A DNA stretch of 64,000 nucleotides, from IMG/VR virus record IMGVR_UViG_3300045988_101578, positions 1 to 64,000 of that record; one strand, 5' to 3'. Numbering within the stretch: the stretch's first letter is position 1; each line of letters begins with the position of its first letter. Shown here piece after piece: positions 8,005-40,593 of this stretch. A model generated the notes under the pieces. The model was given only the letters and a program-made list of their open reading frames with translations, was not told where the DNA came from and made no database searches. Source of the DNA: a virus. The position numbers were made by a program, and so were the translations under genes.

Positions 8005-8544
8005 ATGGAAGGAGTTATGAATATGAATAAATTCAAGCATTATGGGAAAGATGTATGGGTTCAGACATTTACAGAAACAAACTGGGTAGATGGACTAAAG
8101 AAAAACGGATTAGAATATGTAGCACTTCCAGATCTTGAACATGAAGTATATAAATATGTTAAGAATGGAAAAGAGAGGTATGCTCTAATTCATTATCCTG
8201 ATGTACCTGAAGAAGCATTACAAGAAGTATATATAATAGAAAAGATTCCTGATGATCTTAGTTGGGATAACATAATAGAAGATTACAGACAGCAGAGTAG
8301 AGGATATGAACCGATGAAACTGCCAACACGAGCAAGGCTATTGTATGATAAAGCCGATCACATAGCATATGAATTGGAAAAAGAAGATCACAATTTTGCT
8401 AAAAATTTTTGGCATAGACCTACAGGATATATTGATCCTAAACGATTTAAGTCGGCTCTTACTTTGCTTGGAACAAGTATCGAAGAACTAAGGGAAATGG
8501 ATCATTCCGATACGCCAGAAATTGATGAACTAGAATTAGAATGA
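8005..8544 (+). CDS. hypothetical protein
   Basis: ORF. Confidence 0.5.
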   Translation: MEGVMNMNKFKHYGKDVWVQTFTETNWVDGLKKNGLEYVALPDLEHEVYKYVKNGKERYALIHYPDVPEEALQEVYIIEKIPDDLSWDNIIEDYRQQSRGYEPMKLPTRARLLYDKADHIAYELEKEDHNFAKNFWHRPTGYIDPKRFKSALTLLGTSIEELREMDHSDTPEIDELELE

Positions 8545-8602: not shown

Positions 8603-8637
8603 ATACAAATTTTTACATAAGAAAGGTGGAATTAATT

Positions 8638-9990
8638 ATGAATCTAAACGAAATGGAAATCCCTTGCGATCCAATTTTGGATAAAGCAAAGAGGGATGAG
8701 TTAGTGCAGAACACGGAGCTTTTAAAACAAGTTACGATCAAGCCGATTCCGTGGCTCCCTGGACGAGATTATATCACTACGGAACAGGTAGCACGATTTT
8801 TTGATGGAGATGTTGACGAGGTTAAGAGATTGTGTACGAAGTATCGCAAAGAGTTTTTAGACGATGGAATGGAAGTTAAGACAATACAAGAAATCATTGA
8901 CGGTCAGGACGCAACAACGGAAAAACAGAAGGGAAGAATCATTGTAACGTATCCGAACGGATTGAATATCTCATTCGGCTATAAGGGTGCTAAGGTGTTT
9001 ACTCTTAAATGTTTGATCAGATTGTCTTTACTGATGGAAACTTCAAGCCTTGCTGAGAACGTAAGACATTATGTTTTTATTAATGAGTACATCACGATGG
9101 AAGAGCAGAGAGAACAAGAGCAGGTAGAGGCAGGTGTGCAGCTTGTAGACACAACGGAAATTTTAGGTAGAAGAATTGACTTATACAGAAGCATTGAAGA
9201 TCCGTTATTCTTGGCAAGAGATGTTGCAGAATGGATTGATTATAGTAAACGTCCTGATGGAAGTTATAAAACAGATATGATGTTACAGGCGATTGATTCA
9301 GAGGAAAAATATAAGACCAAAATCTTAACCGCCAATAATGTTGGCGGGTCAAATTTAGGTCAGATTGATTCTACGGGAAAGACTATTAATCCATTTTGGT
9401 TTCTGACAGAAGATGGACTCTATGAAGTATGTATGCAGTCACGCAAACCGATTGCAAAGCAGATGAAGAAACAGATTAAAGAATATCTTAGAAACATTCG
9501 TAAGACAGGCGGTGCGGTTGACTTTGGAAAAGAGTCACAGTTCATTGAACACTACTTCCCGTCATTTTCTGAGGATGTCAAGCTTGCTATGGTAACCGAT
9601 CTGCGAACACAAAACAAAGAACTCAAAGAAGAGAATCAGAAGTTACAGAATGATAATAAGCTATTAGCAGCGGAAATTTTGACGTGGGATGATCGCAATA
9701 AGATGAACGCTGGAATTAGGAAGTTGGCTGCCGTTACAGGAACACAATTCTCTGTTATGTGGAACGAGCTTTATAAGAACTTGCAATACAAATATCAGAT
9801 TGATGTTAAGAAACGTGGTAAGAAACCATTTCTTCAGTGGATTCAAGAACATGAATGGGATAAGGTAATGAAAGTCTTTTGTGCAATGTGTGAAGCTAGA
9901 AACCTATCTCCAACAGATATGTTCCAACAGACAGCACCAGTGGAAAATTTATATGATAATGAAGATGAGGCTGATGAAGTATGGAATTAG
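8638..9990 (+). CDS. Bro-N domain protein (phage antirepressor-like) with a central Bro-N domain
   Basis: segment FLTEDGLYEVCMQSRKPIAKQMKKQIKEYLRNIRKTG matches the Bro-N C-terminal consensus (GlY.L...Srkp.Ak.F..Wv...v.P.IRktG); ATG at 8638 after RBS aaaggtgg (track ORF starts at GTG 8626). Confidence 0.6.
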   Translation: MNLNEMEIPCDPILDKAKRDELVQNTELLKQVTIKPIPWLPGRDYITTEQVARFFDGDVDEVKRLCTKYRKEFLDDGMEVKTIQEIIDGQDATTEKQKGRIIVTYPNGLNISFGYKGAKVFTLKCLIRLSLLMETSSLAENVRHYVFINEYITMEEQREQEQVEAGVQLVDTTEILGRRIDLYRSIEDPLFLARDVAEWIDYSKRPDGSYKTDMMLQAIDSEEKYKTKILTANNVGGSNLGQIDSTGKTINPFWFLTEDGLYEVCMQSRKPIAKQMKKQIKEYLRNIRKTGGAVDFGKESQFIEHYFPSFSEDVKLAMVTDLRTQNKELKEENQKLQNDNKLLAAEILTWDDRNKMNAGIRKLAAVTGTQFSVMWNELYKNLQYKYQIDVKKRGKKPFLQWIQEHEWDKVMKVFCAMCEARNLSPTDMFQQTAPVENLYDNEDEADEVWN

Positions 9991-17801: not shown

Positions 17802-18752
17802 ATGGCAGCAACACAGTTTGAAGTTATTGAAACAGTAAACAATAATAACGCAGAAGAATCTGAAACAAAGATTAAAAGACGTAAGGATGGAAGTCCTAAA
17901 TGGACTCGATCTAACAAACAGAAAGGCGTATCATCTTTAGTGTATCCGATCAAGGACAGAAAACAATTTGCAGCCTTTAATGCATATTTTAGAGACCAGA
18001 TTGATAAATCGTACACAGAGTACAAACGATATGTAGCTGCCAGAAACAATCTTTTGGTTGCAGTTGGAAACAATACAGCATATCGTATCTCTGATATCGT
18101 CAGACTCAAATGGGGCGATTTATTAGACGATAAGACTCGTAAGCAGGAAAAGAAAACAAAGAAATTCAGAACTGTATACTTTAACGATTTGGTAACTGAA
18201 GCAGTGGATATTTTCTTTGAAGCTGTTGCAGGAACTAAATATGATGTCAAGATTGATGGCGAAGTGCCAATGGATGATTATGTTTTTGGAACATGTAAGT
18301 CTGGATCAGGACACATGACTGAAGCAAATGCTTTGGATTTTGTTAAAAAAGGTGCTAAAGCAGTTGGAATTGAGGACAATATTGGTACGCATACATTACG
18401 AAAGAACTTTGTGTATTGGACACTTGTCGATCATAAAGATGATCAGAACGTATTGTATACACTTATGAGATTATTGAATCATAGTAGCCCTGCAATGACA
18501 TTTCTGTATGCAACAATCACAGAGGAAGAAACTCATGTATTGTTTGATGATATTGCGCAGACATACAAGGAAATTATCAGTGGGGCTTTTAACGGATTGA
18601 AGGAAAATGTTGTTAATGTGAGTTATGATAGAGTTATGGAGATTATCAAGTTTGCTTATAAGACTGGCAAAGATGATGCAGATCAAGATGATAGAGTACA
18701 TGAAGATAATATGCAGGCATTAGAAGAGTTATTGGAAGGAGTAATTGTATGA
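17802..18752 (+). CDS. tyrosine recombinase / phage integrase family protein
   Basis: box I AYRISDIVRLKWGDL; HTLRKNF (HxxR); LNHSSPAMTFLYAT (catalytic Tyr context). Confidence 0.7.
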   Translation: MAATQFEVIETVNNNNAEESETKIKRRKDGSPKWTRSNKQKGVSSLVYPIKDRKQFAAFNAYFRDQIDKSYTEYKRYVAARNNLLVAVGNNTAYRISDIVRLKWGDLLDDKTRKQEKKTKKFRTVYFNDLVTEAVDIFFEAVAGTKYDVKIDGEVPMDDYVFGTCKSGSGHMTEANALDFVKKGAKAVGIEDNIGTHTLRKNFVYWTLVDHKDDQNVLYTLMRLLNHSSPAMTFLYATITEEETHVLFDDIAQTYKEIISGAFNGLKENVVNVSYDRVMEIIKFAYKTGKDDADQDDRVHEDNMQALEELLEGVIV

Positions 18753-22691: not shown

Positions 22692-22887
22692 AGTTCTTCC
22701 TTATTATATATGATGACTCGCACAGGTATTTGTGCAAAATTGAAATGTAAATATTATGTTAGAAAGGAGAAAAACTCCAATACTGTCTGGGTATTCGAGA
22801 TGGGTACGCAGGTATTGAGTGTCGATGAATGTCGATACCATAAAAAATGTAAAGTAACAAATTGATACATTAGAAAAGGAGAATTAT

Positions 22888-24231
22888 ATGGACGAAAATA
22901 AAACGGGCGTTTGGATACAAAACAGTATGAATGGCAAAATAATTAAATATAATCCACGAGATGATATGGCACCATTTAATGTAGGAGATGTTGTTGAAGT
23001 AGAGAATGACGATGTATATGCGATGTTTAAAATTGAAACAGTAGAATTCAAAGGAAATCTTCCAATAACCGAAACTTATATGATAAAGCCGCATGGAAAG
23101 GTTTCTAAAAAAACGCAATCTTGGCAATATGTTACATTTGATGATGCTGAGTCGATTGAAATGGATGTGTATAGAGATGGTAGAGTAAATATTATTGTTC
23201 CATATTGGTATGAAAAAGTGCGATATAGACTACAAAGTATAAAGTCGACAGAGGCAACCATTATAATCAGAAGAATCACAAGAAAAGAATCAATGAATGA
23301 AAATCTTGAGATTCATACAGGTACGATTTTAGCTGACGAAATAAAAATTGGAACATTAGCCCCACCACCACGCTCAGAAAGAAGAGTGTCTGCTATGCCC
23401 TACTATCAGCAAAAACCAATTACCGCAATGTCAGAAGCAGAAAAGAATTGGCTTGGTGGACTCTCAGCCCCAGGGGAATCAAGGATGATACATGACGACC
23501 ATGGGTTGAGTCCTTATGCACCAACACATATTGTTTGGAATGGTGAAACGAGTGCGACTTTAACGTTTTCGTCAGAAAAATTGGATGAAATCATGAGTGA
23601 ACTTACAGAAAACGAAGAGGAGAAAGATATGTATACAGAAAAATTAAAAGACAAAATCAAAAAAGTTATTTATGTAGACAAGGAAATGACGGTCAAAGAA
23701 CCAGTGTTAGATGGTAATGGTAAGCCGCTCGAAGAAGATGGTAAACCAGTAACTAAGTATAAATTTTACAGAGGTATGGTTAAGGTGGTTTGGAACTGCG
23801 GTACTGAAACTGTTGCTTATACAAGCAGGTTCGACAGATTTAACAGAGAAGAAGGTTTCAAGACTTGTGTATTAAAATACCTGTTTGGTAACGCAGGTGC
23901 TCATGATGCAGTTGATTTTTGGACAAACAAATATGTGAAATATCCAAGTAGCTGCATTGAAGTGACAGAAAATTTATGCAAACTGGAAGAGATCATCGAG
24001 AATGATAAGCACAGAGAAGAGGAACGCAAAGGTTTACCTCATGCAAAATTCTTTGTCGTAAAGAAAGAAGAATTAATGTTTGATCCACTTAAAGAATCAT
24101 ATGAGGACGAGAATGGTCAAAAGATTAAGGAATTTAAGAAACTTGCTAAGAAGTATTTCCCAGAACTCAAGGGCAAAGAAATTTATATCAATGACAATAA
24201 GAGTTATGAAATCTTCGTAGCAATTAAATAA
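22888..24231 (+). CDS. hypothetical protein (447 aa)
   Basis: RBS aaaggag. Confidence 0.55.
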   Translation: MDENKTGVWIQNSMNGKIIKYNPRDDMAPFNVGDVVEVENDDVYAMFKIETVEFKGNLPITETYMIKPHGKVSKKTQSWQYVTFDDAESIEMDVYRDGRVNIIVPYWYEKVRYRLQSIKSTEATIIIRRITRKESMNENLEIHTGTILADEIKIGTLAPPPRSERRVSAMPYYQQKPITAMSEAEKNWLGGLSAPGESRMIHDDHGLSPYAPTHIVWNGETSATLTFSSEKLDEIMSELTENEEEKDMYTEKLKDKIKKVIYVDKEMTVKEPVLDGNGKPLEEDGKPVTKYKFYRGMVKVVWNCGTETVAYTSRFDRFNREEGFKTCVLKYLFGNAGAHDAVDFWTNKYVKYPSSCIEVTENLCKLEEIIENDKHREEERKGLPHAKFFVVKKEELMFDPLKESYEDENGQKIKEFKKLAKKYFPELKGKEIYINDNKSYEIFVAIK

Positions 24232-31009: not shown

Positions 31010-31147
31010 GGAAACATAGCTCAGTTGGTAGAGCAGGCAATACATAAACATTCATTTTTCTACCTCCATATAAGTATTTTTATTTATTTACATTTAATTT
31101 TCATCACATATAAATTGCCGACACAGGTTCGATTCCTGTCGTGTCCA
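31010..31147 (+). tRNA. tRNA-like element split by a 72-nt AT-rich insertion (5-prime half with canonical D-arm; 3-prime half with anticodon-stem strand, T-arm and acceptor strand); acceptor stem pairs only 5 of 7
   Basis: ggaaacaTAGCTCAGTTGGTAGAGCAggcaat ... attgccgacACAGGTTCGATTCCTGTcgtgtcca. Confidence 0.35.
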
Positions 31148-37073: not shown

Positions 37074-38705
37074 ATGGCTAAGAAACAAGACGATAACACA
37101 ATGACAATTGCAAGGAAAATCACGTTAATTCCTGTTGCAAGCGAGCGAAAAGAGTGGAAGAAAAGAATTGATGCTTTCTTAGAAAAAGATTTTCCAAGGA
37201 AAATTGAAGCAAAGAAGAAACAGATTAAGAACACAAGTAAACCAGAAAAGAAAGATGGGTATAAACAGCAGCTTGCAGAATTAGAAAAGCAATATGAAGA
37301 GTTCAAAGAAAATGAAATGAAAGAATACACTCAGAAAATGGTTAATGATTATACATATGGTCTTGTGAGAGATGCGATGGAAAGTGAAGCAAGGCGAAAG
37401 AATTACATTATGTCATACATATATACAAAAATGGTACAGGACGAAGTAGCGAATTTACCGACTCTTACAGAAAAGAATAAATGGGTGAGTGCCAATGTTA
37501 ACAAATGTTATCGTAAAGCGGGTAATAAAAATGGAAGTATTTTTACAGACGTTGATATTAGTAATCCGTTGATGGGATACGGTTTTGAGTTTAAACAAGC
37601 GCTTACAAGCAAAATTAAGAATTTAATTAAAGATGGAGTATTGAAAGGAAAAGTTTCTGTCCCAAATTATAAATTCGATTCTCCTTTTACTTTAAGTAAT
37701 AAGAGTTTTGGTATTTTTACAGATTGCAAAGATATAACAGAATTAAAAAAGAATATTGGTAAGCCTACATACCCAGTGTATGTGTGCTTGGGCGGTAATG
37801 GTCTTCCAACAATTGCTAAATTCAAGATTAATTTTGGACATAAACAAAACAAGAATAAGGCAGAATTAATTTCAACAATTATTAAGATTTTCACAGGGGA
37901 GTATTCAGTTGGCGGAAGTACATTTGGTATTGATAATAATAAAATAGAAATGAACTTAAGCATAACAATGAAAAAACAAAAAATGGATTTAGATGAAAAT
38001 ACTGTTGTTGGAGTTGACTTGGGACTTGCTGTTCCTGCTGTGTGTGCTTTAAATAATAACGAATATGATAAACAATATATTGGAAGTGGGAATGATCTTG
38101 TTTCAAAAAGAACAAAATTTCAAAATGAATATACGCAGTTACAAAAAGCTTTAAAATTAGCAAAAGGTGGACATGGAAGAAAAAGAAAATTATTAGCTTT
38201 AGAAAGGCTAAAAGAAAAAGAAAACAATTTTGTTGATACATATTGTCATCGAGTTAGTAAAAAAGTTGTTGATTATGCAATCAAACATAGAGCAAAATAT
38301 ATCAACATAGAAAATTTAAAAGGGTATGATTCAAGTGAATTTGTTTTAAGAAATTGGAGCTTTTATAAACTACAGCAATATATTACATATAAAGCAGAAC
38401 AATGTGGGATCATAGTTAGAAAAATCAATCCATCATTTACATCTCAAGTGTGTAGTTTTTGTGGGCACTGGGAGAAAGGACAAAGAAAAGATCAGGCAAC
38501 ATTTAAATGTAAGAACCCTAATTGTAAAAGTCACAAGCTATATACTGTAAATGCAGATTACAATGCGGCTAGAAACATCGCAATGTCAACACAATTTACA
38601 GACGATAAATTTAAATGTTCAGAAGAAACGATTCAAGCTGCGGCAGATTATTATGGAATTGTATTAGAAGATGATAAAAATAATGATAATAAAAAAACTG
38701 CTTAA
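37074..38705 (+). CDS. cas12f: Cas12f (Cas14)/TnpB-family RNA-guided nuclease, 543 aa; RuvC split by a CxxC...CxxC zinc finger; catalytic D/E/D intact
   Basis: RuvC-I VVGVDLGLAVPAVCALNN; GGHGRKRK linker; RuvC-II KYINIENLKG; Zn finger CSFCGH...CKNPNCKSH; RuvC-III NADYNAARNIA; RBS gaaggagtgaag; followed by tracr-like RNAs and repeat-spacer arrays. Confidence 0.8.
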   Translation: MAKKQDDNTMTIARKITLIPVASERKEWKKRIDAFLEKDFPRKIEAKKKQIKNTSKPEKKDGYKQQLAELEKQYEEFKENEMKEYTQKMVNDYTYGLVRDAMESEARRKNYIMSYIYTKMVQDEVANLPTLTEKNKWVSANVNKCYRKAGNKNGSIFTDVDISNPLMGYGFEFKQALTSKIKNLIKDGVLKGKVSVPNYKFDSPFTLSNKSFGIFTDCKDITELKKNIGKPTYPVYVCLGGNGLPTIAKFKINFGHKQNKNKAELISTIIKIFTGEYSVGGSTFGIDNNKIEMNLSITMKKQKMDLDENTVVGVDLGLAVPAVCALNNNEYDKQYIGSGNDLVSKRTKFQNEYTQLQKALKLAKGGHGRKRKLLALERLKEKENNFVDTYCHRVSKKVVDYAIKHRAKYINIENLKGYDSSEFVLRNWSFYKLQQYITYKAEQCGIIVRKINPSFTSQVCSFCGHWEKGQRKDQATFKCKNPNCKSHKLYTVNADYNAARNIAMSTQFTDDKFKCSEETIQAAADYYGIVLEDDKNNDNKKTA

Positions 38706-38852
38706 ATATTTGGTGTGTTTTGGAGGGAGTTCGGTACTCCCTCAGCCATAAATAAAATGGTTACGCCAAAAGTGAGGAGAAATCACTCACTAAAATTTGT
38801 GTAATGAAGCAGAACGTAAAGTTTTGTATTGTATACATAATTAAGATTTGAG
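38706..38852 (+). ncRNA. tracrRNA-like scaffold 1 (conserved blocks tggtgtgttttgg / acgccaaaagtgag / actcactaaaat, then an anti-repeat atttgtgtaat and gttttgtatt complementary to repeat family 1)
   Basis: hairpin gagggagt/actccctc; stem agtgag/ctcact; anti-repeat complementary to attacacaaat of the downstream repeat. Confidence 0.6.
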
Positions 38853-38954
38853 GTTTGAGAACCATAAAAAATTACACAAATACAAAACGATCTTGGCTCG
38901 CTGATCCAGTGCATGGGTGTTTGAGAACCATAAAAAATTACACAAATAAAATAC
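38853..38954 (+). CRISPR. mini CRISPR array 1: 36-nt repeat gtttgagaaccataaaaaattacacaaatacaaaac, 30-nt spacer gatcttggctcgctgatccagtgcatgggt, second repeat 34/36 identical
   Basis: repeat-spacer-repeat read directly. Confidence 0.7.
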
Positions 38955-39089
38955 ATGGCATGTTTTGGGAAATTTTATTCCAATTAAAATTTCTGGTCAC
39001 AGAGTTGTGGCTATGCCAAAAGTGAGATCGTAAGGTACTCACTAAAATCTATGTAAATTAGGTAACAAAATTGGACAAAAGAATTTGAG
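38955..39089 (+). ncRNA. tracrRNA-like scaffold 2 (catgttttggg ... tatgccaaaagtgag ... actcactaaaat then anti-repeat ctatgtaaattaggtaacaaa)
   Basis: hairpin gaaatttta/taaaatttc; stem agtgag/ctcact with a different loop; anti-repeat complementary to repeat family 2. Confidence 0.6.
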
Positions 39090-39263
39090 GTTTGATACCT
39101 AATTAATTTTACATAGGTACAAAACTGTGCAAGCCTCTTTCTTCTGCTAATGCTTTGTTTGATACCTAATTAATTTTACATAGGTACAAAACGGCAGAAG
39201 CAATTAAAGAAAAAATGCAAAAATGTAGTTTGATGCCTAATTAATTTTACATCATAAACTTAA
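39090..39263 (+). CRISPR. mini CRISPR array 2: two exact 36-nt repeats gtttgatacctaattaattttacataggtacaaaac, spacers of 31 and 35 nt, and a degenerate terminal repeat gtttgatgcctaattaattttacatcataaacttaa
   Basis: R-S-R-S-degenerate R architecture. Confidence 0.8.
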
Positions 39264-39273
39264 TAAAATTTTA

Positions 39274-39400
39274 AAATATTTGGTGTGTTTTGGGAGTATA
39301 TAAAATATTCTGCTCAAATAATATTGAGTACGCCAAAAGTGAGGCTTACTATAGCACTCACTAAAATCTATGTTATATTGTCGGATTTATGTTATTTGAT
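39274..39400 (+). ncRNA. tracrRNA-like scaffold 3 (aaatatttggtgtgttttgggag ... tacgccaaaagtgag ... actcactaaaat then anti-repeat ctatgttat ... ttgtc)
   Basis: first 20 nt identical to the scaffold-1 start; anti-repeat complementary to repeat family 3. Confidence 0.6.
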
Positions 39401-39497
39401 GTTTGACAACTATAAAAAATAACATAGGTACAAAACCAACACATTTGCCCTTGATTTATCGAATGTGTTTGGCAATTATAAAAAAAATAACAAAAAC
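39401..39497 (+). CRISPR. mini CRISPR array 3: 36-nt repeat gtttgacaactataaaaaataacataggtacaaaac, 30-nt spacer caacacatttgcccttgatttatcgaatgt, degenerate 31-nt terminal repeat
   Basis: read directly. Confidence 0.65.
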
Positions 39498-39517
39498 CTA
39501 AAGGAATTTAAACAAAA

Positions 39518-39686: not shown

Positions 39687-39989
39687 ATGGCACATAACTT
39701 GTATATTGAAACACAATCAGAATATACAGGATGTAGTCCACAGCTGGAGGTATTAAATGTAAGAGATTGCAAACATATCATTGCATCATTAGATCATTAC
39801 CCACCTACAGCCGAGGAGGTTAAGAAAGCAGCTTGTATATTAATCGGACGATGTATTTACAAACGTATTTGGAACATGGAAATCGACATTGATAATTTGG
39901 ATATGCATTGTTCTCCGCCAAAAGAAATGACGATTGAAGAAATTGAAAAGGAACTTGGTTATAAAGTTAAAATTGTAAAGGAGAAATAA
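39687..39989 (+). CDS. hypothetical protein (start at ATG 39687 after RBS aaaggagaga)
   Basis: track ORF 39606..39989 extends 5-prime over the small ORF. Confidence 0.45.
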   Translation: MAHNLYIETQSEYTGCSPQLEVLNVRDCKHIIASLDHYPPTAEEVKKAACILIGRCIYKRIWNMEIDIDNLDMHCSPPKEMTIEEIEKELGYKVKIVKEK

Positions 39990-40300
39990 TGCCAATGGCA
40001 AAAAAGAAACAAGGAATGTCGTTTGAAATGATGATGCAAAATATGGAAATTAATCCAAGGCAATTGTATCGTCGTAGTTCGTGGAAGAAGACACGAACAA
40101 CTTATGATTATGTGTTTATGATGTGCGAAGAAGAATTAAATGAGATTATTCCATTTGATAAAAAATATAAAATGAAACCACTCTTATGTAGAGACCAAAA
40201 TGGAGTTATAACATTGGGATGGTTGCCTACACAAGAGGATATTTTCGCAAATGATTGGGTTGAGCAAGGATGGGATTTTAACAGTAAAAGGAAGAGGTGA
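39989..40300 (+). CDS. hypothetical protein
   Basis: ORF. Confidence 0.45.
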   Translation: MPMAKKKQGMSFEMMMQNMEINPRQLYRRSSWKKTRTTYDYVFMMCEEELNEIIPFDKKYKMKPLLCRDQNGVITLGWLPTQEDIFANDWVEQGWDFNSKRKR

Positions 40301-40308
40301 ATAATTAA

Positions 40309-40593
40309 TTGAATTTTATAAAAGCAATGATTGCAATAAAAAAAGACAAAACTACTATAAGAAGAGGCATTTGGGGAAAGGAAAAGTATTTGAAAATTTA
40401 TTCGTCAGAATTAACTAATGTTTATTTTGAGTGTAATGATATGGGTGAATATAAGCCAGATTCAATTATTTTTTTATTTGATAAAGAAAACGCAGAAGTT
40501 TGGATACCTCTTGCGGAAGATGTATATGCAGATGACTGGGAAATATATGTTGAGTCACTTAATAAAGGTGAGCAGATAAAGGAGGAAAAATAA
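40309..40593 (+). CDS. hypothetical protein (TTG start)
   Basis: ORF. Confidence 0.4.
   Translation: MNFIKAMIAIKKDKTTIRRGIWGKEKYLKIYSSELTNVYFECNDMGEYKPDSIIFLFDKENAEVWIPLAEDVYADDWEIYVESLNKGEQIKEEK

Follow-up and report, generated by a model that had tools for sequence, protein, structure and literature searches.

The window analysed here is a stretch of 64,000 nucleotides (positions 1 to 64,000 of the IMG/VR virus record IMGVR_UViG_3300045988_101578) from a human-gut phage with a genome of ~146-180 kb. It contains a gene for a nuclease of the Cas12f type, a miniature effector of the class 2 CRISPR systems, followed on the same strand by short repeat arrays with four spacers, named S1, S2a, S2b and S3 (Table 1). 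An earlier reading of the letters alone, made without database searches (hereafter the sequence-only reading), had given the positions and the sequences of these spacers exactly. The effector matches the Pfam families Cas12f1-like_TNB (PF07282) at 1.4e-17 and OrfB_IS605 (PF01385) at 6e-11, and PADLOC reports it as Cas12u3 (1.5e-94) and Cas12f (4e-92). Its best matches in the PDB are Al3Cas12f (entries 9NZO and 9NZR, 2e-59) and entry 8HR5 (5e-59). The RuvC-type motifs GVDLG (residue 313), INIENL (410) and NADYNAARN (493) align to the same motifs in 9NZO, and zinc cysteines of the pattern CxxC...CxxxxC are found in CSFCGH (460) and CKNPNC (479). Judged by these motifs, both the RuvC D-E-D triad and the zinc-coordinating cysteines are intact.

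The features of type V-F1 were compared with the locus. A small TnpB-derived effector with RuvC and TNB domains (400-700 aa in this type), an array and a predicted trans-activating CRISPR RNA (tracrRNA) are present, and the identified protospacers have a probable protospacer-adjacent motif (PAM) on the 5' side of the non-target strand, which in this type is T-rich or C-rich. The arrays have 36-nt repeats, spacers of 30-35 nt, degenerate terminal repeats and spacers that differ between lineages. Read from its sequence, the locus is thus a phage-encoded type V-F1 (Cas12f1) CRISPR-Cas system, and its spacers are genuine. Two other identities were rejected. In the TnpB/omega-RNA units of IS200/IS605 elements the guide is fused to the scaffold at the transposon end, without a repeat-spacer array or spacer turnover; here, by contrast, repeats alternate with spacers in arrays that can hold more than one spacer, and spacers acquired at the leader end are specific to single lineages. 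The similarity of the effector to the Cas12p 'hacker' is only E = 3e-5 (9JFS).

On the 3' side of cas12f lie three tandem modules and not a single array, each with its own tracrRNA, leader and mini-array. S1 belongs to module 1, S2a and S2b to module 2 and S3 to module 3, and each array closes with a degenerate repeat. Every module starts with a kept unit of ~95-110 nt, which is followed by a leader of 25-50 nt and then by the mini-array of 36-nt repeats. The unit begins A[T/C][T/A]TGG..TGTTTTGG, continues via CGCCAAAAGTGAG...CTCACTAAAAT and ends with a module-specific stretch. Three such tracr-like units are kept in at least eight related phages, and no Rfam family covers the region.

Table 1. 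Features of the Cas12f locus, in window coordinates
Feature	Position	Strand	Remarks
cas12f1-type effector gene, 543 aa, intact	37074-38705	+	Pfam, PDB, PADLOC matches, motifs
predicted tracrRNA 1 (ends approximate)	38708-38800	+	anti-repeat ATTTGTGTAAT at 38790-38800; alignment A1 + RNAalifold
module 1 repeat, GTTTGAGAACCATAAAAAATTACACAAATACAAAAC	38853-38888	+	
S1 spacer, module 1	38889-38918	+	30 nt; target is helicase motif VI codons of ~18-kb island
module 1 terminal repeat (degenerate)	38919-38954	+	
predicted tracrRNA 2 (ends approximate)	38953-39063	+	bipartite anti-repeat at 39041-39063
module 2 repeat 1	39090-39125	+	
S2a spacer, module 2, leader-proximal, polymorphic	39126-39156	+	target search negative
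module 2 repeat 2	39157-39192	+	
S2b spacer, module 2	39193-39227	+	target search negative
module 2 terminal repeat (degenerate)	39228-39263	+	
predicted tracrRNA 3 (ends approximate)	39278-39378	+	anti-repeat at 39360-39378
module 3 repeat	39401-39436	+	
S3 spacer, module 3	39437-39466	+	old spacer common to several lineages; target search negative
module 3 terminal repeat (degenerate)	39467-39502	+	

The consensus fold of the unit was obtained with RNAalifold from 18 aligned units, the three modules of each of six lineages. It contains a long-range helix P1, in which TTGGTGTG pairs with TACGCCAA and one GC-to-AU compensatory pair is observed, and an invariant GTGAG/CTCAC stem. The first hairpin (stem 1) is wholly different in sequence among the three modules, and its pairing is always kept by compensatory changes. 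The module-specific stretch at the end forms an anti-repeat:repeat helix of 11 bp with the 3' half of the repeat of its own module, and four of these pairs are changed on both sides. The cognate duplex of module 1 has an energy of -11.8 kcal/mol, compared with -8.2 and -6.1 kcal/mol with the non-cognate repeats. The corresponding values are -20.5 versus -5.4 and -8.6 kcal/mol for module 2, and -16.3 versus -4.4 and -10.3 kcal/mol for module 3. In this 3x3 comparison the cognate duplex is the most stable one in each row and each column. By covariation and predicted fold, the upstream units are tracrRNAs, each of which would favour its own module's repeat as pairing partner.

The design of these RNAs can be compared with that of Al3Cas12f and MG119, the nearest characterised relatives. 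Together with CnCas12f1 they belong to type V-F1, formerly V-U3 (9NZO, 9NZR, 8HR5), and share with the phage effector the core of RuvC and zinc ribbon (2e-59 to 5e-59). The validated single-guide RNAs of Al3Cas12f and MG119 have a long tracrRNA that ends ..ACUCA(N)AAAAU, followed by the anti-repeat, and the CRISPR RNA (crRNA) uses the last ~18 nt of the repeat. The phage tracrRNA shows the same design, with the 3' end CACUCACUAAAAU followed by the anti-repeat, and an unpaired repeat tail of ~9 nt, ..ACAAAAC. The counterpart in the Al3Cas12f guide is ..ACACUCAAAAAAU plus anti-repeat, with the repeat tail ..AUAUCCAAC. In contrast to Al3Cas12f and CnCas12f1, the phage effector of 543 aa has a longer, non-aligning N-terminal half and is encoded in the genome of a large phage, and no adaptation genes were found close to it. 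Furthermore, three co-varying tracrRNA/mini-array modules stand behind it, whereas those systems have one tracrRNA and one array. A limited literature search found no published precedent for three such tandem modules behind one cas12f.

Each of the four spacers occurs once in the window, with 36-nt repeats on both sides. The sequence-only reading had estimated the genome at about one-third guanine plus cytosine (GC) and S1 as far richer, and both estimates are correct: the GC content of the window is 33.6% and that of S1 is 56.7%, a value equalled or exceeded by only 0.4% of the window 30-mers. Its wider statement that all four spacers are compositionally unlike the phage holds for S1 and fails for the others. 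Compared with window k-mers of the same length, S2a (41.9%) is within the top 20%, S3 (36.7%) is within the top 42%, and S2b (28.6%) is under the window mean. With such ordinary values, composition is no valid argument for a foreign origin of these three. As a population, the spacers have a modest but significant GC enrichment over the genome; the mean of 24 pooled spacers of the phage family is 39.5% versus 33.6% (resampling P ~1e-4). No protospacer had been noticed by eye within the window, and our search of the window agrees with this, the best match of the four spacers outside the array having at least 10 mismatches. Self-targeting was rejected; in a near-identical 146-kb contig, which the scans of IMG/VR also covered, the array alone was matched.

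The target of S1 could be identified. All scans of the large collections (IMG/VR, species genomes and JGI metagenomes) needed exact seeds. The 3' 20-mer of S1 matched seven further IMG/VR contigs (L042-L048), and the matches extend to 29/30 identity, or 28/30 in one of them. Scans with the 5' end of S1 had missed these contigs because their only mismatch is at position 9. On the 5' side, the protospacer has a conserved flank, ACATTCGT. In total S1 is matched in 24 contigs of one genomic island with 1-5 mismatches. The protospacer begins at a codon boundary in a gene for a ResIII/DEAD-type helicase of 534 aa and encodes DLGSLIQCMG, the start of helicase motif VI (..QCMGRRRIGR). The high GC content of S1 is explained by the codons of this conserved motif and not by a GC-rich source genome, as the island itself has 36% GC. 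The proposal that the spacers are foreign and aimed at a rival element or a host-resident locus is thus borne out for S1, while no credible target was found for S2a, S2b and S3.

The island is ~18 kb long and carries genes for a tyrosine integrase, a scaffold protein, an HK97-type major capsid protein, TerL, an SPP1-type portal and a collagen-like fibre. Its borders in several contigs are a host tRNA-Lys gene on one side and a cluster of tRNA-Leu/Pro/Gly/Arg/His/Gln genes on the other. From the integrase and capsid genes and the flanking host tRNA genes, the island is a chromosomally integrated phage-like element, either a small prophage or a capsid-encoding satellite by its gene content. The chromosome that bears it is most likely that of the phage's host. 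PADLOC found no defence match on the island except a similarity between the helicase and Cas3. In one copy (L049, 2300-4050) there is a gene-free stretch of ~2 kb with ~8 tandem units of ~117-127 nt, followed by ~4 units of ~135 nt. The units have kept cores, TATAGGAGAGA.. and GTAAAAAAA.G.CAAAAA, and variable parts.

The island variants at the S1 site mostly read GGT-TCG (changed at position 9) and in some cases GGC-TCA (changed at position 12), and 0 of the 24 have the GGC-TCG of S1. Both are synonymous wobble changes relative to S1. In this small sample the perfect haplotype is missing and both variants one step away from it occur, which is compatible with selection against the perfect form. 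Hypervariability of the protospacer driven by escape was rejected, since the site is one of the best-conserved stretches of the helicase gene, with 91% of its 30-nt windows equalling or exceeding the diversity of the protospacer.

The spacers of module 1 in related phages point to the same island. One scan with the helicase alignment collected 55 loci, including 22 full-length helicase genes of the close family, several of them on complete contigs of ~18 kb. The module-1 spacers of eight lineages are all different, and all eight match this same island family, at different positions and on both strands. Where S1 of the window is directed at the helicase gene, those of L003, L004 and the P0003 lineage match the integrase, the terminase and the capsid gene, and those of L005, L006, L007 and the P0135 lineage match further island sites. 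The best identities are 29/29 (L113), 29/30 (L116) and 29/30 (L003), and several spacers match perfectly across the first 20 nt. In the same island set, none of the 21 spacers of modules 2 and 3 has a match (Fisher p = 2.3e-7). Among the 5' flanks of the eight protospacers, T is found at -4 and at -3 in 7/8 each, a purine at -2 in 7/8, and A or T at -1 in 8/8. These flanks suggest a T-rich 5' PAM of about TTRW. The 5' position of this T-rich bias indicates that the arrays are read on the + strand. Al3Cas12f and MG119 also use a T-rich 5' PAM, which is like the one proposed here; the PAM of CnCas12f1 is C-rich. The best-supported explanation is that module 1 is held on the island family by selection and that its spacer is replaced over time, as in an arms race. 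Our limited literature search found no published precedent for so strict a tie between a single module and a single target family.

Spacer turnover is also observed in the other modules. Seven IMG/VR contigs of 44-169 kb carry the same effector at 90-99% identity with the same three-module layout. S1, S2b and S3 recur on contigs that encode the identical effector and come from many independent assemblies of the human gut, and the lineages at 90-93% effector identity have wholly different spacers in all three modules. Module 2 forms a nested series, with [S2b] in L036 and L037, [S2a, S2b] in the window and [new, S2a, S2b] in L112, which indicates stepwise addition of spacers at the leader end. 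The assemblies L038-L041 and L113-L115 break 414-435 nt past the cas12f stop codon, in the first repeats of module 2, which is consistent with array polymorphism within samples. In a more distant homologue, with 49% identity and located on a contig of 233 kb, there is one tracrRNA together with a short array, so that the triple layout is confined to the clade of the window. The copies of S3 (window, L001, L037, L109 and L112) differ at positions 7, 10 and 11 alone and are invariant in the 3' 19 nt, the variants being CAACACATTTGCCC, ..TTTACCC, ..TTGCCCC and ..CGTTGACCC. This variation could reflect drift or re-acquisition from variant targets. In L007, the spacers at 8080-8111 (module 2) and 8323-8353 (module 3) have a common 13-nt 3' end, ATGCAAGTCTGCA, and in both arrays the terminal repeat that comes next is changed in its first bases. 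The shared ends suggest a recombination between modules.

An adaptation module, common but not obligatory in cellular V-F loci, is not found here. Cas1, Cas2 and Cas4 are absent from the window open reading frames (ORFs) of at least 200 aa, a search that did not exhaustively cover small cas2-like ORFs and the remaining genome. They are also absent from the Pfam lists within +-10 kb of the locus in the relatives.

For S2a, S2b and S3 the searches remained negative. BLAST against phages and plasmids, the route proposed in the sequence-only reading, was unproductive: GenBank phages show no DNA similarity to the locus and gave spacer hits at chance level (E >=0.6), and PLSDB plasmids gave no match for 23 spacers at E up to 1. 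The inspection of flanks for a PAM, which had been proposed as well, led to the motif described above. The genomes of 185,579 species (one per species) returned zero matches for nt 1-22 of S1 and of S2a. The JGI metagenome set returned zero for nt 1-20 of S1, in a scan that also did not return the phage's own array. In IMG/VR the 5' 20-mers of S1, S2a and S3 found only their own arrays, and nt 12-30 of S3 found two more arrays and four chance matches in the JGI metagenomes. Four matches to the 3' 20-mer of S2a (21-24/31) were judged to be chance. The 5' 20-mer of S2b found two unrelated families that match over 20 nt and then diverge (24-25/35); these were also judged to be chance because an acquired spacer is expected to match over its full length. 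To be noted, the exact 5' 20 nt of S2b lie at 3381-3400 of L027 (IMG/VR 3300045988_083358, 49 kb) with the 5' flank GCTTT, inside a 67-aa ORF that adjoins genes for a DNA polymerase and a RuvC-like protein, and 20 nt is a functional guide length of Cas12f. Presumably S2a, S2b and S3 are aimed at two further mobile elements outside the present sampling.

Phage and island have two further short sequences in common. A 46-nt segment, CAAAATCTTAACCGCCAATAATGTTGGCGGGTCAAATTTAGGTCAG, is 100% identical between window 9318-9363, inside a Bro-N/Ant-like ORF (8626-9990), and island contig L048 (2385-2430). In the island it is one of ~6 repeats of the form 'AAATTTAGGT + variable hairpin' just 5' of the helicase operon, and at least five island genomes contain it. 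Such a segment could serve as an origin or an operator, or it could be left over from recombination of phage and island. The second is a 27-nt hairpin motif, GTCTGGGTAYTCGARATGGGTACGCAG, which occurs once in the window (22785-22811, intergenic, 5' of the ORF 22888-24231) and once in each of 12 island loci (e.g. L049 13706-13732). In the 11 loci with a full helicase gene it lies at a constant distance 3' of that gene, and in L046 and L049 it directly follows the portal gene. No Rfam family matches this hairpin, which may be a regulatory signal common to phage and island. Two such sequences hint at a direct interaction of phage and island and do not prove it.

Taking these observations together, we consider it probable (about 0.8) that the locus is a functional phage-borne Cas12f1 system which cuts rival mobile DNA, with three cognate tracrRNA/crRNA channels. 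Relatives of this Cas12f act as an asymmetric homodimer on one guide RNA and cleave double-stranded DNA (PMC13186708). By analogy, once the effector and the three modules are expressed and the crRNAs are processed, a Cas12f dimer with tracrRNA:crRNA would read ~20 nt of guide beside a 5' T-rich PAM of about TTRW, and the loaded nuclease would cut double-stranded DNA. S1 would steer the nuclease to the motif VI codons of the helicase gene in the integrated island. Cutting of the island during infection would likely destroy a resident rival or parasite, from which the phage would benefit. In every lineage module 1 would stay aimed at the island family, with its spacer swapped over time. New spacers would probably be inserted at the leader end by Cas1-Cas2 of the host, which we propose because no adaptation genes were found in the phage regions examined.

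Several points weigh against this reading. All 24 sampled islands are at least one base off S1 within the guide region of ~20 nt. The characterised relatives function best with guides of 19-20 nt, so that the mismatches at positions 9 and 12 lie inside the functional guide, and S1 may currently work poorly or have been escaped. That phage and island meet in the same cell is something we infer. The PAM comes from just eight protospacer families, of which the flanks of S1 (TCGT) and of the L003 spacer (CTGT) deviate from TT. The island set was collected via homology to the S1 target, and the null results for modules 2 and 3 in this set do not bear on targets elsewhere. With three of the four spacers lacking a target, a role against mobile elements is demonstrated for module 1 only. 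In addition, promoter and terminator scans of the locus were uninformative.

A more far-reaching version of this reading joins three proposals, and we put it forward tentatively, as their combination is rather doubtful. First, the three modules may act as semi-orthogonal guide channels that feed one Cas12f, each selected onto a different enemy. Second, the island may be a phage satellite and module 1 the weapon against it, in a gut Cas12f counterpart of the conflict between phage ICP1 and PLE; the 46-nt and 27-nt shared hairpins would then be helper signals copied by the satellite. Third, the unit of tracrRNA, leader, repeat and spacer may fold in cis as a natural single-guide RNA.

Among the alternatives to a functional system, the one that best survives is a fossil locus, in which the arrays are relics of a once-active system and the S1 match records an old encounter without present targeting. 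The identity of S1, S2b and S3 over many independent samples with the same Cas12f protein would fit such decay, and so would the mismatch of every sampled island to S1, the drift-like single-nucleotide changes of S3 and the lack of adaptation genes in the regions examined. We nevertheless regard it as unlikely. The catalytic motifs of the effector are intact, and the complementarity of tracrRNA and repeat is kept through compensatory changes. Each diverged lineage has swapped its module-1 spacer, always onto the same island family, with a consistent PAM and in several cases a perfect match over 20 nt. The leader end of module 2 is polymorphic, and assemblies break within the arrays.

It is very improbable that the arrays hijack a Cas effector of the host instead of using the phage Cas12f. 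Viral arrays that do so are indeed typically mini-arrays with one or two spacers and no adaptation genes (PMC11656645), but here the cognate effector lies directly upstream, three co-varying Cas12f-type tracrRNAs stand between effector and arrays, and the module architecture travels with cas12f in all relatives. Equally improbable is another purpose of island cutting, which might break the host chromosome at a defined site for shutdown or nucleotide supply, or might trigger recombination with the island or direct it. Since the target is integrated in the chromosome, its cutting would also break the host chromosome, and the short shared segments hint at recombination. However, any conserved host gene would suffice for breakage, and all lineages instead spread their spacers over the genes of one mobile island, as one would expect if phage and island were in an arms race. 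Finally, that S1 is DNA common to phage and island by chance or shared ancestry, and not an acquired guide, can practically be dismissed: the two other identical segments (window 9318-9363 and 22785-22811) would suit it, but S1 is bounded exactly by CRISPR repeats, its flanks and those of the protospacer are completely different beyond the 30 nt, a 29/30 match is unexpected by chance, the 5' 20-mers of S1, S2a and S3 are confined to their own arrays in IMG/VR, and the eight different module-1 spacers match the island on both strands, at eight separate positions that share a bias in the 5' flank.

Two adjacent Tad2-like (anti-Thoeris) genes at 39989-40300 and 40309-40593 follow the arrays within a few hundred bases on the 3' side, and the pair is also found beside the locus in the relatives, which places the CRISPR locus in a counter-defence neighbourhood. 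The phage genes of the window include those for a DNA polymerase, DnaB, a RecJ-like protein, exonuclease V and Ant/Bro proteins, and IMG/VR contigs of 85-169 kb count among the relatives that likewise place the locus in a phage genome. A tyrosine-recombinase (Phage_integrase) gene is present at 17802-18752, which may point to a temperate phage or to the use of site-specific recombination. At 31010-31147 a 138-nt tRNA-like Rfam match (34.9 bits), which ARAGORN does not report, may be an intron-containing or degenerate tRNA.

The closest biological parallel is the Vibrio phage ICP1, whose CRISPR-Cas system of type I-F is aimed at the island PLE (Seed et al. 2013, as presented in PMC11656645). 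In the outline given there, ICP1 and the present phage both have a CRISPR system encoded in the phage genome, with spacers that match an integrated, phage-like mobile island of the host and are turned over in an arms race. The ICP1 system is described in the same outline as class 1 and multi-subunit, with its own adaptation module and ordinary arrays. The present system is in contrast a class 2 miniature Cas12f that comes with tracrRNAs and with arrays of one or two spacers, and no cas1/cas2 was found in the regions examined. PLE is an anti-phage satellite, a role at which the two shared short sequences only hint for the island targeted here. The systems of huge phages, Cas-phi (Cas12j) and Cas-lambda, and phage Cas12p are similar in being phage-borne miniature Cas12 effectors with short arrays and usually no adaptation genes. 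No tracrRNA is required by Cas-phi and Cas-lambda, which carry out the processing of their crRNA themselves. Phage Cas12p is a remote relative of the present effector and has a GTN PAM, compared with about TTRW here. All three are thought to target rival elements (PMC11656645). Virus-borne mini-arrays (Medvedeva et al. 2019; Faure et al. 2019, as presented in PMC11656645) share with the phage locus the arrays of one or two spacers in a conflict between mobile genetic elements. As far as they are portrayed in that source, they borrow the host effector, have host-type repeats and mostly target close relatives, whereas the present phage has its own cas12f and cognate tracrRNAs directly upstream of its arrays, and its identified target is an unrelated island.

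The locus thus offers a concrete and testable case of a miniature Cas12f that serves a human-gut phage, with a named target. It parallels the conflict of ICP1 and PLE, but with another CRISPR class and in another ecosystem. The three natural tracrRNA/repeat pairs on one effector show which positions of the guide RNA may co-vary, and such pairs would be useful for the design of orthogonal or multiplexed Cas12f guides. The island is of interest in itself for its capsid genes, its unusual tandem non-coding repeats and the sequences it has in common with the phage. Furthermore, the pairing of one module with one enemy raises the question of how mini-arrays of one or two spacers stay on target without adaptation genes of their own.

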